Source: Chiloscyllium plagiosum (lineage: Eukaryota). From it: a stretch of 20,000 bases of DNA. Below are positions 12,082-19,710 of the stretch, one piece after another. The translations under genes and the position numbers were made by a program. The stretch is taken from positions 42,053,923-42,073,922 of the forward strand of contig NC_057718.1 of the NCBI RefSeq assembly GCF_004010195.1, read 5' to 3'. The notes below the pieces were generated by a model. The model was given only the letters and a program-made list of their open reading frames with translations, was not told the DNA's origin and ran no database searches. Positions within the stretch are counted from its first letter, which is position 1, and every line of letters begins with the position of its first letter.

Positions 12082-14657
12082 TCAAATTTCTGTGACCATA
12101 TGCATGTCCAGCAGCGTCTTAAATATCCCCAATGACCTCGCTTCCACAACTGCTGCTGGCAACGCATTCCATGCTCTCACAACTCTCTGCGTAAAGAACC
12201 CGCCTCTGACATCCCCTCTATACTTTCCGCCAAACTGCTTAAAACTATGACCCCTCGTGTTAACAATTTCTGCCCTGGGAAAAAGTATCTGGCTATCAAC
12301 TCTATCTATGCCTCTCATTATCTTGTATACCTCAATTAGGTCGCCTCTCTTCCTTCTTTTTTCCAATGAAAAAGGTCCGAGCTCAGTCAACCTCTCTTTG
12401 TAAGATAAGCCCTCCATTCCAGGCAGCATCCTGGTAAACCTCCTCTGAACCGTCTCCAAAGCATCCATATCTTTCCTATAATAGGGCGACCAGAACTGGA
12501 CAAAGTATTCCAGTCTAACCAAAGTTTTATAGAGCTGCAACAAGATCTCATGGCTCTTAAACTCAATCCCCCTGTTAATGAAAGCCAAAACACCATATGC
12601 TTTCTTAACAACCCTGTCCACTTGGGTGGCAATTTTAAGGGATCTATGTTCCTGCACATCAAGATCCCGCTGTTCCTCCACACTGCCAAGAATCCTGTCT
12701 TTACTCCTGTACTCAACTTTCAAGTTCGGCCTTCCAAAATGCATCGCTTTGCATTTATCCAGGTTGAACTCCATCTGGCACCCCTCAGCCCATCTCTGCA
12801 TCCTNNNNNNNNNNNNNNNNNNNNNNNNNNNNNNNNNNNNNNNNNNNNNNNNNNNNNNNNNNNNNNNNNNNNNNNNNNNNNNNNNNNNNNNNNNNNNNNN
12901 NNNNNNNNNNNNNNNNNNNNNNNNNNNNNNNNNNNNNNNNNNNNNNNNNNNNNNNNNNNNNNNNNNNNNNNNNNNNNNNNNNNNNNNNNNNNNNNNNNNN
13001 NNNNNNNNNNNNNNNNNNNNNNNNNNNNNNNNNNNNNNNNNNNNNNNNNNNNNNNNNNNNNNNNNNNNNNNNNNNNNNNNNNNNNNNNNNNNNNNNNNNN
13101 NNNNNNNNNNNNNNNNNNNNNNNNNNNNNNNNNNNNNNNNNNNNNNNNNNNNNNNNNNNNNNNNNNNNNNNNNNNNNNNNNNNNNNNNNNNNNNNNNNNN
13201 NNNNNNNNNNNNNNNNNNNNNNNNNNNNNNNNNNNNNNNNNNNNNNNNNNNNNNNNNNNNNNNNNNNNNNNNNNNNNNNACAAGGTCCTTTTCTTTAGTA
13301 AAGACAGAAGCAAAAAACTCATTTAGGGCTTCCCCTACCTCCTCAGACTCTATACACAAGTTCCCTATGCTATCCCTGATCGGCCCTACTCGTTCTTTGA
13401 TCATTCTTTTATTCCTCACATACGTGTAAAATGTCTTTGGATTCTCCCTAATCCTTCCTACCAAGCCTTTTTCGTGCCCCCTCCTGGCTCTCCTCAAACC
13501 ATTTTTGAGCTCCTTCTTCACCTATCTGTAATCCTCTAGAGCTGAGCAAGACCCTTGCTTCCTCCACCCTACGTAAGCTGCCTTCTTCCTTTTGACGAGA
13601 AGCTCATCTGCTCTCATCATCCAAGGTTCCTTTATCTTACCCTTTCTTCCTGTCTCAGACGAACACATTTAGGCATCACTCGCAACAACTGTTCCTTAAA
13701 AAGTCTCCACATGTCTATAGTGCCCTTTAAAAACACTTTAAATAGATGCGTTTCCACTCAATATAAATTGGAAAATATTACTCATGTATCTGACACATCG
13801 AATGGGAATGGGAAACAAACCCATTGCAGATGGTCGAGAAAGATTGGCGGGACATATAGAGAGAGCAATTGCTCCCAGTCCATGCTTCCCAACTCACGTC
13901 TGATAGCATCATAGTTTCCTTTTCCCCAATTAAATATCCTCCCATTGTGCCTGCTTCTCTCCTTCTCCATAGATATGTAGAATGTGAGGCAGTTGTGGTC
14001 ACTATCACCAAAATGCTCTCCCACTGCTAGATCTGACACCTGCCCCGCTTCATTGCCGAGCACCAAATCCAAAATGGCCTCTCCCCTCGTCGGCCTGTCA
14101 ACATACTGAGTTAGGAAACCGTCCTGAACACACCTTACAAAAATAGCTCCTTCCAAACCACCTGCCCGAAGGAGGTTCCAATCAATACTGGGAAAGTTAA
14201 AGTCACCCATTACAACAACCCTACTACATTCACACTTTTCCAAAATCTGCCGACCTATGCTTTCTTTAATCTCCCTGCTGCTATTGGGGGGCCTGTAGTA
14301 AACCCCTAATGAGGTGACTGCTCCCTTGCTGTTCCTAATTTACACCCATANNNNNNNNNNNNNNTCCCTATTCTTTTTAAATGTTCTAAACCCTGGAACA
14401 TCCAGCAACCCTGAGAAACCCACGTCTCTGTTATGGCCACAACATCATAGCACCAGGTACTGATCCATGCTCTAAGCTCATCACTTATTCCTGATACTCC
14501 TTGCATTAAAGCAAACACACTTTAACTGATCCCTTGGTTCTTTCCCAGGAAATTCCTTCCCACTGGCTGCGCTACCTCTTGCTATTGCCTCATCTCCATC
14601 GACTCTCACCACCGGTATATAGCTCAGGTTCCCACCCCCCTGCCACACTAGTTTAAA
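12082..14657 (-). pseudogene. CR1 copy A ORF2 (APE endonuclease + reverse transcriptase), disrupted
   Basis: Segments 14481-14657 (LKCVCFNARSIRNK), 14306-14518 (DELRAWIST..AITETW), 13782-14243 and 12082-13521. Frameshift near 14485, foreign insert at ~13729-13860, RT core hidden in an N gap. Confidence 0.9.
12805..13279. other. Assembly gap (475 N)
   Basis: N run; further N runs at 14351-14364 and 16921-17257. Confidence 1.
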
Positions 14658-15466
14658 CCCTCCTGAACCACTCGAGCAGACCTTCCACCCAGGACATTGG
14701 TCCCCTTCCAGTTCAGGTGCAACCCGTCCTTCATGTACAGGTCCCACCTACCCCAGAAGGCATCCCAATTATCTACATATCTGAAGCCCTCCCTCCTACA
14801 CCAGCTGCGCAGCCACGTGTTACCCAGCTGCACCCACTCCCTGTTCCTCGCCTCGCTATCTCGTGGCACCGGTAGTAAACCCGAGAACACTACTCTGTTC
14901 GTCCTGCTCTGCAGCTTCCACCCTAACTCCTTGAAATCACTTCTTATATCCTCAATCCTTTTCCTGGCTATATCATTGGTGCCAATATGTAACACGATTT
15001 CTGGCTGTTCACCCTCCCCTTTCAGAATCTTATACACCCGATCGGAGACGTCCAGGACCCTGGCACCAGGGAGGCAACATACCTTCCGGGAATCCCGATC
15101 CTGACCACAAAATCTCCGACTGATTCTCCTAACAATCGAGTCTCCTACCACTAGCGCTTTTCTATTCTGCCCCCTTCCCTTCTGGGCCACAGTGTCGGGC
15201 TCAGTGCCAGAGAACTGACCACTATGGCTTTCCTCTGGTAGGTCATCCCCTCCCAGCAGTATCCAAGACGATATACTTATTGCTGAGGGGAATGTCCACA
15301 AGGGATCTCTGCACTGTCTGTCTGTCCCCTTTCCTTCCCCTAACTGTAACCCATCTATCCTTTTCCTGAGCCTCAGGAGTGACCAACTGCCGATAACTTC
15401 TCTCAATTACCCCCTCAGCCTCCCGAATGATCTGCAGTTCACCCAGCTCCAGCTCCAATTCCCTGG
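14648..15466 (-). pseudogene. CR1 copy A ORF1: coiled coil + SGNH/GDSL esterase domain
   Basis: ELELELGELQIIRE coiled coil (15243-15476 frame), a frameshift near 15245, then VVGDS, LPGA, HIGTND, DGLHLN (SGNH blocks I, II, III, V), ending EGLN*. Confidence 0.9.
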
Positions 15467-15759
15467 CTTGCTCCAATGGATATATTTAGGACAGGCGAGA
15501 CCAGAACCTTAGCCTGAAAAATCACTGACAGCTAAATGGATAACTTTTGAATCTGTTCTCATAGTAATTGGAATATCTGGGACAACATTCATCAGAACCT
15601 TCACTTCTCCAGGCTATCAATCGAGAGTCTACGTCACCTGCCATGGATTCTGTTTCCTGCCCATATTGTTTTTAGAGTCGTAGAGTCATAGAGATGTACA
15701 ACATGGAAACAGACTCTTCGGGCCAACCTGTCCATGCCGACCAGATGTCCCAACCCAAT

Positions 15760-18358
15760 CTGGTCCCACCTGCCAGGATATGGAGGGCCCATATCCCTCC
15801 AAACCCTTTCTATTCATATGCCCATTCAGATGCCTTTTAAATGTTGCAATTGTACCAGCCTCCACCACTTCCTCTGGCAACTCATTCCATACATGTACCA
15901 CTCTCTGTGTGAAAGTGTTGCCCCTTAGGTCTCTTTTATATCTTTCCCCTCTGACCCTAAACCTACGCCCTCTAGTTCTGGATTCCCCAACCCCAGAGAA
16001 AAGGCTTTGTCTATTTATCCTATCCATGCCCCTCATGATTTTGTAAACCTCTATAAGGTCATCCCTCAGGCTCCGATGCTTCAGGGAAAAAAACCCTAGC
16101 CTGTTCAGCCTCTCCCTATAGCCCAAATCCTCCAACCCTGGCAACATCCTTGTAAATCTTTTCTGAACCATTTCAAATTACACCACATCTTTCCGATAGG
16201 ATGGAGACCAGAATTGCACACAATATTCCAACAGTGGCCTAACCAATGTCCTGTACAGCCGCAACATGACCTCCCAACACCTGTACGCAATACTCTGACC
16301 AATAAAAGAAAGCAGACCAAATGCCTTCTTCACCATCCTATCTACCTGCCACTCCACTTTCAAGGAACTATGAACCTGCACTCCAAGGTCTCTCTGTTCA
16401 GCAACACACCCTCGGACCTTACCATTTCATGTATAAGTCCTGCTAAGATTTGCTTTCCCAAAGTGCAGCACCTCACATTTATCTGAATTAAACTCCATCT
16501 GCCACCTCTCAGTCCATTGGCCCATCTAACCAAGATCCTGTTGTAATCTGAGGTATCCTTCTTCGCTGTCCACTACACCTCCAATTTTGGTGTCATCTGC
16601 AAACTTATTAACTGTACCTCTTATGCTCACATCCAAATCATTTATGTAAATGACAAAAGGTAGAGGACCCAGCACCGATCCTTGCAGCACTCCACTGGTC
16701 ACAGGCCTCCAGTCTGAAAAACAACCCTCCACCACCGCCCTCTGTCTTCTACCTTTGAGCCAGTTCTGTATCCAAATGGCTAGTTCTCCCTGTATTCCAT
16801 GAGATCTAACTTTGCTAATCAGTCTTCCATGGGGAACCTTGTCGAGTGCCTTACTGAAGTCTATATAGATCACATTTACCGCTCTGCCCTCATCAATCCT
16901 CTTTGTTACTTCTTCAAAAANNNNNNNNNNNNNNNNNNNNNNNNNNNNNNNNNNNNNNNNNNNNNNNNNNNNNNNNNNNNNNNNNNNNNNNNNNNNNNNN
17001 NNNNNNNNNNNNNNNNNNNNNNNNNNNNNNNNNNNNNNNNNNNNNNNNNNNNNNNNNNNNNNNNNNNNNNNNNNNNNNNNNNNNNNNNNNNNNNNNNNNN
17101 NNNNNNNNNNNNNNNNNNNNNNNNNNNNNNNNNNNNNNNNNNNNNNNNNNNNNNNNNNNNNNNNNNNNNNNNNNNNNNNNNNNNNNNNNNNNNNNNNNNN
17201 NNNNNNNNNNNNNNNNNNNNNNNNNNNNNNNNNNNNNNNNNNNNNNNNNNNNNNNNNATTCTTTTAAGGATTCACTCGATCTATCCTGTCTATACCTTAC
17301 ATATGCTTCCTTCTTTTTCTTAACCAAACCCTCAATTTCTTTCGTCATCCAGCATTCCCTATACCTACCAGCCTTTCCTTTCACCCTAACAGGAATATAC
17401 TTTCTCTGGATTCTTGTTATGTCATTTCTGAAGGCTTCCCATTTTCCAACCTTCCCTTTACCTGCAAACATCTGCCCCCAATCAGCTTTTGAAAGTTTTT
17501 GCCTAATACCATCAAAATTGGCCTTTCTCCAATTTCGAACTTCAACTTTTAGATCTGGTCTATCCTTTTCCATCACTATTTTAAATCTAATGGAATTATG
17601 GTCACTGGCCCCAAAGTGCTCCCCCACTGACACCTCAGTCACCTCCCCTGCCTTACTTCCCAAAAGTGGGTCAAGTTTTGCACCTTCTCTAGTAGTACAT
17701 CCACATACTGAATCAGAAAATTCGTTTGTACGCACTTAACACATTCCTCTCCACCTAAACCCTTAATACTATGGCAGTCCCAGTCGAAGTTTGGAAAGTT
17801 AAAATCTCCTACCATAACCACTCTATTATTCTTACAGATAGCTGAGATCTCCTTATAAATTTGTTTCTCAATTTCCCTCTGACTATTAGGGGGTCTATAA
17901 TACAATCCCATTAAGGTGATCATCCCTTTCTTATTTCTCAGTTCCACCCAAATAACTTCCCTGGATGTATTTCTAGGAATATCCTCCCTCAGCACAGCTG
18001 TAATGCTATCCCTTATCAAAAACTCCCCCTCCTCTCTTGCCTCCCTTTCTATCCTTCCTGTAGCATTTGTATCCTGGAAGATTAAATTGCCAGTCCTGCC
18101 CATCCCTGAGCCAAATTTCTGTAATTGCTATGAAATTCCAGTCCCACGTTCTTAACCATGCCCTGAGTTCATCTGCCTTCCCTGTTAGACCCCTTGCATT
18201 GAAATAAATGCAGTTCAATTTATTAGTCTCACCTTGTCCCTGCCTGCCCTGACTGTTTGATTCTCTTCTGTTCTCAACTGTACTTGTCTCAGACTGACCT
18301 CTTTCCTCACTATCTCCCTGGGTTCCCCCATGCCTCCCCCCCACCTTAATAGTTTAAA
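15760..18358 (-). pseudogene. CR1 copy B ORF2 (endonuclease + RT), frameshifted
   Basis: Consecutive fragments in ORFs 18006-18344, 17639-18103, 16914-17735, 16526-16873, 16178-16381 and 15686-16171. Confidence 0.9.
16921..17257. other. Assembly gap (337 N)
   Basis: N run inside copy B ORF2. Confidence 1.
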
Positions 18359-19050
18359 TCCTCCCAAGCATCTCTAGCAAATCTTCCTGCCGGTATATTA
18401 GTCCCCTTCCAATTTAGGTGCAATCTGTCCTTCTTGTACAGGTCACTTCTACCCCAAAAGAGATTCCAGTGATCCAAAAATGTGAATCCTTCTCCCATAC
18501 ACCAGCTCCTCAGCCATGCATTTCTCTGCTCTATCCTCCCATTCCTGCCCTCACTAGCTCGTAGCATCAGGAGTATTCCAGATATTACTACTCTCGAGGA
18601 CCTCCTTTTTAAATTCCTGCCTAACTCTCTGTAATCTCCCTTCAGACTCTCAACCTTTTCCCTTCCTATGTCATTGGTCCCAATGTGGACAATGACCTCT
18701 TGTTGGCCCCTCTCCCCCTTGAAAACATTCTGCACCCTCTCTGAGACATCCTTGTTCCTGGCACCAGGGAAGCAACAAACCATTCTGCTTTATCGCTACT
18801 GGCCACAGAAACGTCTGTCTGTACCTCGGGCTAGAGAATCCCCTAACACAATTGATTGCTTGGAACCCGATGTACCCCTCGTTGCATTAGAGCCAGTCTC
18901 AATACCAGAAACTTGGCTGTTCGTGCTACGTTCCCCTGAGAATCCATCACCCCCTACATTTTCCAAAACAGCATACCTGTTTGAAATGGGGAGAGCCACA
19001 GAACACACCTGCACTAGCTGCCTACTTCTCTTACGTTTGTTAACCATTGT
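18346..19050 (-). pseudogene. CR1 copy B ORF1 SGNH esterase, with premature stops
   Basis: PISNRYAVLE, IVLGDS, stop at ~18796, CCFPGA, HIGTND, DRLHLN, ending EDLNY*. Confidence 0.9.
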
Positions 19051-19710
19051 GTTTACCAGCATCTTTTTTCCTTCAAAAAGGTGAAAAAATGTCAAAGACA
19101 TATTTGAAGCATTTCTGAAAGATTACAATTTTATGTTTTTCCACTCTATGTGTGGTCATTTGACCACCTCCTTTCCTTTATCTAAAATGTACAATTTCTC
19201 ACCTTGCCCTTTGGTGAGCTTCCCGCACGAAGACTAGAAATGGTAAGCAACTCATCATGAAGTAATAAGGGGGGCACATTCTGAGTAATTGCAGGACATC
19301 ATCCTGCTGAAAATTATTGATCAGTGTAAGTGCTGTGCTAATGTTTGCTGTTGTCTGCCCTACAAAGAATCAATCCTCTACACTTTTGTACATGCACTAC
19401 TTCCCATCAGGTTATACGTTGACTACACACCTTGGCTCAAATGGACTGATGGGTTGTGTATGTGTGTACATGATGGGGTGGGGTTTTTAGAAAACCTTGT
19501 GACTACTGTGCAGCATGATCCAATCAGACTGCTCGCAGCTTGACACAGACTTTTAATGAAGGAATATGAAATACCAGTTAAGCTCTTAAATATGCTAATA
19601 TCCCTGGCCTACAGTTTCCTGATGTTGTCTGTTGTGGGTTTCCAAAACATTTTTAAAAAGCTTCCTGGGCCTTTTCATGTCTTTTCATTAAATTTATATT
19701 GTAGTAAATC

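Follow-up and report, generated by a model that had tools for sequence, protein, structure and literature searches.

A candidate programmed -1 ribosomal frameshift signal at the ORF1/ORF2 junction of esterase-type LINEs

Results

Structure of the junction in the window

The window, a stretch of 20,000 nucleotides (nt) of the Chiloscyllium plagiosum genome (NCBI RefSeq assembly GCF_004010195.1, contig NC_057718.1, positions 42,053,923 to 42,073,922 of the forward strand), carried on its minus strand a long interspersed nuclear element (LINE) with an esterase-type first open reading frame (ORF1), followed by an ORF2 for an endonuclease and a putative reverse transcriptase. The element was assigned to the CR1 group (CR1/L2-like) by its esterase ORF1 and its endonuclease of the apurinic/apyrimidinic (APE) type, and this assignment leaves CR1 and L2 undivided. 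ORF1 ended on the heptamer T_TTA_AAC, immediately before its stop codon. The comparison of this junction between lineages suggests that it is a programmed -1 ribosomal frameshift signal, by which ORF1 and ORF2 would be made as a fusion.

ORF1 was listed from a TTG codon at 15406, and this copy, which belongs to the lineage designated A, probably lacks some of the ORF1 N-terminus. The protein matched the Pfam families PF13472 (E 4.5e-12) and OSK PF17182 (E 1.7e-6), as well as PDB 4c1b, the esterase of the zebrafish ZfL2-1 ORF1 protein (ORF1p), with E 3.4e-25. On the minus strand, the junction read ...CAG GAG GGT TTA AAC TAG TGT GGC AGG GGG GTG GGA ACC. The initial annotation had placed the heptamer in the X_XXY_YYZ phase of ORF1 directly before the stop codon, and the analysis of the reading frames confirmed this arrangement (Table 1). 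It had also read the -1 frame into the endonuclease without an AUG. The ORF listed in this frame (14747-14481) did read ...GFKLVWQGGGN...LKCVCFNARSIRNK, where LKCVCFNARSIRNK is the endonuclease motif; the listed "M" was a GTG codon, and no Met was present from the upstream stop to the stop of the frame itself. Because the heptamer itself contains TAA in the +1 frame, only the -1 frame was open past the junction. The G-rich segment noted downstream was real. Its GGGGGG begins 10 nt past the heptamer; with the GG of TGTGGCA included, the distance is 6 nt. The exact string TTTAAACTAR occurred once in the 20-kb window.

Table 1. Features of the two LINE copies in the window
Feature	Position	Strand	Description
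ORF1, lineage-A copy	14648..15406	-	SGNH/GDSL esterase, 252 aa as listed, C-terminus ...VVQEGLN
Slippery heptamer T_TTA_AAC (candidate)	14651..14657	-	X_XXY_YYZ phase with ORF1 (GGT TTA AAC)
ORF1 stop TAG	14648..14650	-	Adjoins the heptamer; TAG or TAA here in all lineages
Variable 7 nt of the 10-nt spacer	14641..14647	-	TGTGGCA in the window copy
G run	14631..14640	-	GGGGGG 14640-14635, then TGGG 14634-14631; candidate 3' stimulator
-1 frame continuation	14481..14650	-	LVWQGGGN...LKCVCFNARSIRNK; 46-residue linker and endonuclease N-terminal motif, no Met
Rest of the endonuclease domain, same copy	13782..14243	-	PF14529 E 2.7e-7, PF03372 E 1.7e-6
Putative reverse-transcriptase and C-terminal part of ORF2, same copy	12082..13521	-	From the ORF list; middle reads N, no Pfam match
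Second ORF1/ORF2 junction, lineage-B copy	18346..18358	-	GAT TTA AAC TAT TAA: heptamer intact, stop changed to TAT, back-up TAA next

Decay of the window copy and its family

The ORF2 frame of the window copy closed at 14483-14481, and two bases of an A run were missing between 14484 and 14485 relative to the other copies. Other lineage-A copies with an open -1 frame read on past this point as ...SIRNKSD/SE.... The remainder of the endonuclease domain sat in another frame because of indels. The reading frames mark the window copy as dead, and the ORF2 protein (ORF2p) cannot be made from it in its decayed state.

A search of the species' own 3.56-Gb genome with a 301-nt junction query gave 4716 candidates, of which 40 were scored and were 95-100% identical to the query. 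Thirty lineage-A family copies were taken with 1.5 kb on each side. The junction was TTTAAACTAG in 25 of them and TTTAAACCAG in one, while four carried a single change in the heptamer, leaving TTTAAAC exact in 26/30. The variable part of the spacer was TATGGCA in 28/30 copies as opposed to TGTGGCA in the window (14646 C>T on the plus strand). Two of the 30 copies lacked the anchor pattern and fell outside the ORF2-frame analysis; in every one of the 28 copies analysed, the -1 frame was open for at most 207 of about 552 available codons. In contigs of a DNA run containing the family (4388 pieces), the heptamer, the stop and the G run showed no substitution or indel at or above 10%. Of two raw RNA runs, X21 contributed 16 reads over the stretch and X22 none, too few to bear on expression or on indels at the RNA level. 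Since decay after insertion is neutral, conservation within the family says little about selection, and a test between lineages was therefore needed.

Conservation of the heptamer between lineages

All comparative tests were run on natural copies rather than on consensus sequences. When the same genome was searched for the esterase family PF13472, 16992 candidates yielded 151 matches, from which 30 loci were taken. They formed lineages B and C, with ORF1 proteins 46-64% identical to that of the window (tblastn). The junction was readable in 23 of the 30 loci, and TTTAAAC was exact in 14 of the 23 and differed by one or two letters in the other 9; six further loci read N there, and one had unrelated sequence. 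The open frames of 1040-1303 aa listed for some esterase loci were rejected as in-frame fusions of esterase and reverse transcriptase, being artefacts of runs of about 1200-1460 N that begin just before the junction. In the lineage-C copies L041, L044, L045, L048, L049 and L051, such runs gave false frames of 742-1260 aa, and these copies may point to long open ORF2 frames in this genome. ORF1 ended with GAT TTA AAC TAG TAA in lineage B and with GGT TTA AAC TAA in lineage C. In both lineages, a G run followed the stop and the endonuclease lay in the -1 frame, and the linkers of lineages A, B and C could not be aligned with one another past the G run.

The window itself also contained a lineage-B copy, spanning 15686-19122 on the minus strand and lying directly upstream of the first LINE, with endonuclease and reverse-transcriptase pieces down to about 15686. 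Its ORF1 (18789-18346, minus strand) ended with ...WEDLNY. By eye, its G-rich stretch was several bases longer than in the other lineage-B copies, and its endonuclease frame was displaced.

Junctions were also collected from the DNA of other organisms. When metagenome contigs were scanned with an alignment of ORF1, 43 loci were found that were 28-50% identical to the window ORF1. In 22 of the 43, the homologue was aligned to within 12 residues of the C-terminus, and 4 of these 22 stopped short of the junction, which left 18 junctions. TTTAAAC was exact in 16 of the 18, and a one-letter variant was present in the other two (L061 and L070). Eleven of the foreign contigs had an open ORF1 frame ending with NNT TTA AAC TAG/TAA, in which the preceding codon was TGT, CAT, GCT, TCT or TAT. 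Among the closest named homologues were a penguin protein, 98% identical to L072, and a turtle protein, 38-53% identical to L062, L082, L084 and L088. The best-matching named proteins for a group consisting of L063, L064, L068 and L098 were from the annelid Ridgeia piscesae and were 72-76% identical to the ORF1 of L068. One other match to TTTAAACTAR, at L103:774 in a bird-type contig, was rejected as a junction; it was located inside the conserved C-terminal region of ORF2 and was read in frame as FKL (..GNGFKLKQ..).

The initial annotation had predicted that the wobble positions of T TTA AAC would be invariant if the word served in frameshifting. Analysis of the codons showed that these positions did not vary among the lineages, whereas the invariant CLPGA motif of the same ORF1 varied synonymously in Leu (CTT/CTC/TTG/TTA), Pro (CCA/CCT/CCG), Gly (GGA/GGG/GGT) and Ala (GCT/GCC/GCG). 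Given the codon usage of ORF1 in each element, NNT TTA AAC was expected to spell x-L-N in 0-4% of cases. These results bear on the explanation that the junction reflects chance or coding constraint, in which ORF1p would need a C-terminal Leu-Asn, codon habit would account for the rest, and the frames of a dead element would be accidental. The window copy is indeed decayed, and the ORF2 frames of its family copies are broken. The exact word was nevertheless found in every lineage despite its expectation of 0-4% per element, intact copies elsewhere kept the layout, and the G run fell outside ORF1. Chance or coding constraint is thus an extremely improbable explanation.

The protein ends were in agreement with the nucleotide data. 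The window ORF1 had 96 homologues, with names including sharks, rays, a chimaera, frogs, turtles, a penguin and a catfish. Of the 60 homologues with a complete C-terminal helix, 56 ended with -LN. The residue before LN was G in 20, A in 12, T in 7, S in 4, D in 3, C in 3, Y in 2, and V, F, N, H or E in one each; in 55 of the 56 proteins, a codon ending in T, which the heptamer demands, is available for it. Of the 120 proteins listed for the annelid-like set, 81 had the LN end, and the residues before it (S, F, Y, C or L) are all compatible with T.

Some of these homologues carried unexpected names. A 294-residue LINE ORF1 esterase, 68% identical to that of the window, had been entered as an SGNH hydrolase of Pseudomonas aeruginosa; its contig of 4159 bases is probably animal DNA that found its way into a bacterial assembly. 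Two others were apparently misnamed as a 40S ribosomal protein S24 isoform (sawfish) and as PDZ and LIM domain protein 5 (duck); together with the Pseudomonas-named protein, these were entries P0005, P0014 and P0098.

Frame of ORF2

A consistent -1 position of ORF2, also predicted by the initial annotation, was found in every lineage where ORF2 could be followed. In the intact foreign copies, the -1 frame counted from the heptamer was open for 495 codons in L064, 403 in L068, 463 in L071, 438 in L072 and 502 in L073, and in four of these five it reached the end of the locus. An APE endonuclease was present in the -1 frame of all five, starting from about residue 40-93. Upstream of the heptamer, the same frame extended for only 1-2 codons in L063, L067, L071, L072 and L078 and for 13-14 codons in L064 and L068; across the five intact foreign copies, the overlap was 1-37 codons. 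With the -1 frame so short upstream, the heptamer was the only place at which the frame could be changed.

In the shark genome, the -1 frame reached the endonuclease motif uninterrupted in 15 of 26 lineage-A copies and in 6 of 14 copies of lineages B and C. Among the copies with an open -1 frame, no Met preceded the endonuclease motif in 14/15 of lineage A, 3/3 of lineage B and 3/3 of lineage C. L064 and L068, both annelid-like, had their first Met at residue 59, past the endonuclease motif at residue 41. A start codon of the SART1 type, next to the ORF1 stop and in the ORF2 frame, was missing from shark lineages A, B and C and from the annelid-like copies. Codon 5 of the -1 frame was TGG or AGG in the sharks, GTG in L064, L065 and L067, TCG in L068 and L072, TGG in L078 and GCA in L063.

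Lineage A did contain an ATG shortly after the stop (TAG T ATG G in 28/30 copies, GTG in the window), but this codon was rejected as the start of ORF2, being in the +1 frame, which closes after 15 codons. It would enter the ORF2 frame at an altered length of the G run, with one G fewer or two more, as in the single copies L015, L027 and L010.

Four protein entries (P0020, P0056, P0130 and P0160) continued from the esterase through ...FKL... to the endonuclease (..SREGFKLNLQG.. and ..LQLFKLVSQGG.. are two such passages). Each is a single copy or a gene model in which the frames are joined; they illustrate the -1 reading and are not evidence of frameshifting.

The G run downstream of the stop

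Counted from the heptamer, GGGGG occupied +11 to +15 in 14/14 lineage representatives and in 14 of the 16 foreign contigs that were long enough. When the 14 representatives were aligned at the heptamer, the commonest base of a column had an average frequency of 0.99 in GGGGG, against 0.55 upstream, 0.52 across the spacer and 0.50 farther downstream, and the G run played no part in the picking of these representatives. The -1 codon preceding the run always ended in G, and the Gly codon in it was always GGG. As the third base was always G and Gly was always GGG, the run was conserved as RNA and not as protein. At the level of sequence, TTTAAAC-stop-N7-GGGGG is thus a conserved feature of esterase-type LINE junctions in annelid-like, shark, turtle-like and bird-like elements.

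Conservation at the RNA level, together with the lack of any predicted structure of a known stimulator type, would also suit an RNA signal with a non-decoding role, such as binding of an element protein or assembly of the ribonucleoprotein, with ORF2 translated through internal entry or leaky scanning. Such a signal would leave the ORF1 phase of the word, the adjacent stop, the constant -1 relation and the very short overlap without explanation. Leaky scanning in particular appears unlikely because the ORF1 frame was 147-391 codons long in intact copies. A purely non-decoding role was therefore regarded as very unlikely.

A small hairpin (CCAGGC...GCCUGG, with variants CCAGGCU...AGCCUGG) was observed in the bird-like copies L066, L072, L073 and L078 at about +27 to +52 from the heptamer, around 20 nt past the G run. 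By eye and from the fold of L066, the changes in it appeared to preserve pairing.

Discussion

Proposed mechanism

The results above suggest, with a probability of roughly 0.7, that esterase-type (CR1-group) LINEs carry at this junction a programmed -1 ribosomal frameshift signal that yields an ORF1p-ORF2p fusion, as the initial annotation had proposed; the comparative tests support this proposal, with the slip itself being inferred. Most ribosomes translating ORF1 would stop at the UAG next to U_UUA_AAC and release ORF1p. A minority would slip back by one base on the heptamer, with the Leu tRNA moving from UUA to UUU and the Asn tRNA from AAC to AAA. The slipped ribosomes would then read the -1 frame through the short variable linker into the endonuclease and the reverse transcriptase. 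The product would be a fusion resembling gag-pol, made in small amounts relative to ORF1p.

The layout, its conservation down to synonymous sites, the frame relation and the lack of a conserved AUG can be seen in the sequences, whereas the slip, the fusion protein, the ratio of the products and the role of the G run are deduced from comparison. Several observations weigh against this mechanism. A search among longer proteins for a natural in-frame fusion of esterase, endonuclease and reverse transcriptase found none, with all three hits looking chimeric, although this is weak evidence either way. The value of 0.94 for the heptamer plus stop among the 14 representatives is biased because the word was used in picking them; the unbiased measures are the counts in family copies and foreign contigs. 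Other points concern the stimulator. The -1 sites of retroviruses and coronaviruses have a pseudoknot or a hairpin 5-9 nt downstream, and in signals driven by such structures the spacer is about 6 nt in infectious bronchitis virus (IBV) and about 7 nt in mouse mammary tumour virus; the 10 nt found here is longer. When the 90 nt downstream were folded for 13 representatives, none was more stable than its shuffled counterparts (z from -1.24 to +1.41). The CAGG/CCTG stem that the initial annotation had suggested fared no better, being formed only in the minimum-energy fold of lineage A (z 0.24 for the window copy) and not being conserved. A G-quadruplex was predicted in 4 of 19 sequences, and no C run that could pair with the G run was found at a consistent place. 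Rfam contained no family matching the junction, and the sole hit was a chance-level microRNA (E 5.8) at 14372-14400 on the other strand.

The distribution of AUG codons must be counted on the same side. The absence of an AUG before the endonuclease, also claimed by the initial annotation, held in the shark lineages and the annelid-like copies but failed in three of the six bird-like copies followed to this point. In these three, L066 (FKLDM), L071 (FKLGM) and L073 (FKLAM), an ATG formed codon 5 of the -1 frame, only 2 nt past the stop, and L084 had an ATG at codon 4. Such codons are what would be expected of termination-reinitiation, in which the ribosome would restart a few bases past the UAG in the -1 frame, on an AUG or a non-AUG codon, and make a separate ORF2p, with the TTTAAAC-stop-G-run block serving as the restart signal. 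Reinitiation requires no downstream hairpin, and none was predicted here. It is also accepted for SART1 (UAAUG) and for human L1, according to the accessible parts of two reviews (PMC2881922, PMC3894237).

The AUG in the ORF2 frame is sporadic, however, while the heptamer is invariant among the lineages compared. Reinitiation gives no reason for an X_XXY_YYZ word to be held in the phase of ORF1 with its wobble bases included. Motifs of the termination upstream ribosome-binding site (TURBS) type act upstream of the restart site, whereas the G run lies downstream of it. Reinitiation is the main rival to frameshifting. It would be plausible mainly where an AUG follows the stop, it leaves the heptamer unexplained, and as a general account of these junctions it was considered rather unlikely.

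Under the frameshift mechanism, the invariant run of five or six G located 10 nt downstream is likely the stimulator. It may act through a bound protein, through a G-quadruplex in some lineages or through contact with the ribosome, and a bare G run at a fixed distance of 10 nt may represent a new kind of eukaryotic frameshift stimulator.

Significance

It is still an open matter how a bicistronic LINE RNA gives rise to ORF2p. In its accessible text, a 2013 review of protein biogenesis in elements that lack long terminal repeats (non-LTR elements) calls the initiation of ORF2 "an interesting - and important - question" (PMC3894237). A slippery site at the end of ORF1 offers a simple and testable answer for the esterase-type group. 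If the frameshift is real, ORF2p would carry an esterase at its N-terminus, the frameshift efficiency would set the ratio of ORF1p to ORF2p, and the annotated starts of CR1 "ORF2" would need revision.

The term "frameshift" was absent from PMC3894237, from PMC2881922 (a general non-LTR review), from PMC13343379 (a 2026 survey of the vertebrate CR1 group), from PMC3905857 (the ZfL2-1 esterase structure) and from PMC4316615 (amniote CR1). PMC4120745 and PMC2817409 gave nothing on the junction under the terms tried, of which "frameshift" was not one. No paper linking CR1 to a slippery site or to frameshifting was found in the searchable literature; the older primary papers on CR1 were outside its reach, and an earlier mention in them is possible.

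Comparison with known systems

The junction resembles the gag-pol (pro-pol) signals of retroviruses and LTR elements and the ORF1a/1b signal of coronaviruses. An abundant upstream product would be accompanied by a rare fusion bearing the polymerase, and the stop of the 0 frame is close to the shift site. Their stimulator is a pseudoknot or a hairpin, whereas here no stable fold was predicted and a bare G run stands at 10 nt. The present element is also a non-LTR LINE with an esterase ORF1 and not a capsid protein. The heptamer is of the same class, and the accessible part of PMC5009743 gives the same word for IBV and ranks U_UUA_AAC among the shiftiest -1 heptamers for mammalian ribosomes. In that part of the article, HeT-A and TART are the only non-LTR elements mentioned in this context.

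A second likeness is to the -2/-1 signal in nsp2 of arteriviruses such as PRRSV. This signal is described in the accessible text of PMC4937337 as having no obvious downstream structure and a conserved linear motif 11 nt downstream, which is bound by a protein complex, and as being efficient only with spacers of 9-11 nt. The junction studied here likewise has no evident downstream structure and has an invariant linear G run at 10 nt. The viral motif differs in being C-rich (CCCANCUCC) and in acting via nsp1beta and poly(C)-binding proteins (PCBP), according to the same source, whereas the present run is G-rich and follows another heptamer. By this analogy, a protein-bound G tract is a reasonable hypothesis. 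A more far-reaching and doubtful proposal is that the tract is bound by a host G-tract binder or by ORF1p, which would block the ribosome and determine how often the frame shifts, in the manner of nsp1beta and PCBP in arteriviruses. U_UUA_AAC-stop-7 nt-G5-6 would then be an ancient recoding module extending from annelids to sharks, turtles and birds, with ORF2 synthesis adjusted by ORF1p or by cellular conditions. In that case, every molecule of the copying enzyme would be synthesized as a fusion with the esterase, which would provide a natural basis for cis-preference.

Inside the non-LTR elements, the nearest precedent is found in TRE5-A and TRE3-A of Dictyostelium, which are APE-type elements in which a -1 frameshift is said to be needed for ORF2 translation (PMC5911963). 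These elements belong to another clade and another host, and the accessible part of that article mentions no esterase ORF1. SART1 and human L1 share with the present element a bicistronic LINE RNA in which, as far as the accessible parts of the reviews describe it, ORF2 comes right after ORF1 and depends on its translation (PMC2881922, PMC3894237). They differ in having no slippery heptamer and in making a separate ORF2p, whereas in the esterase-type LINEs the AUG is absent or unconserved and a canonical shift site has been kept.

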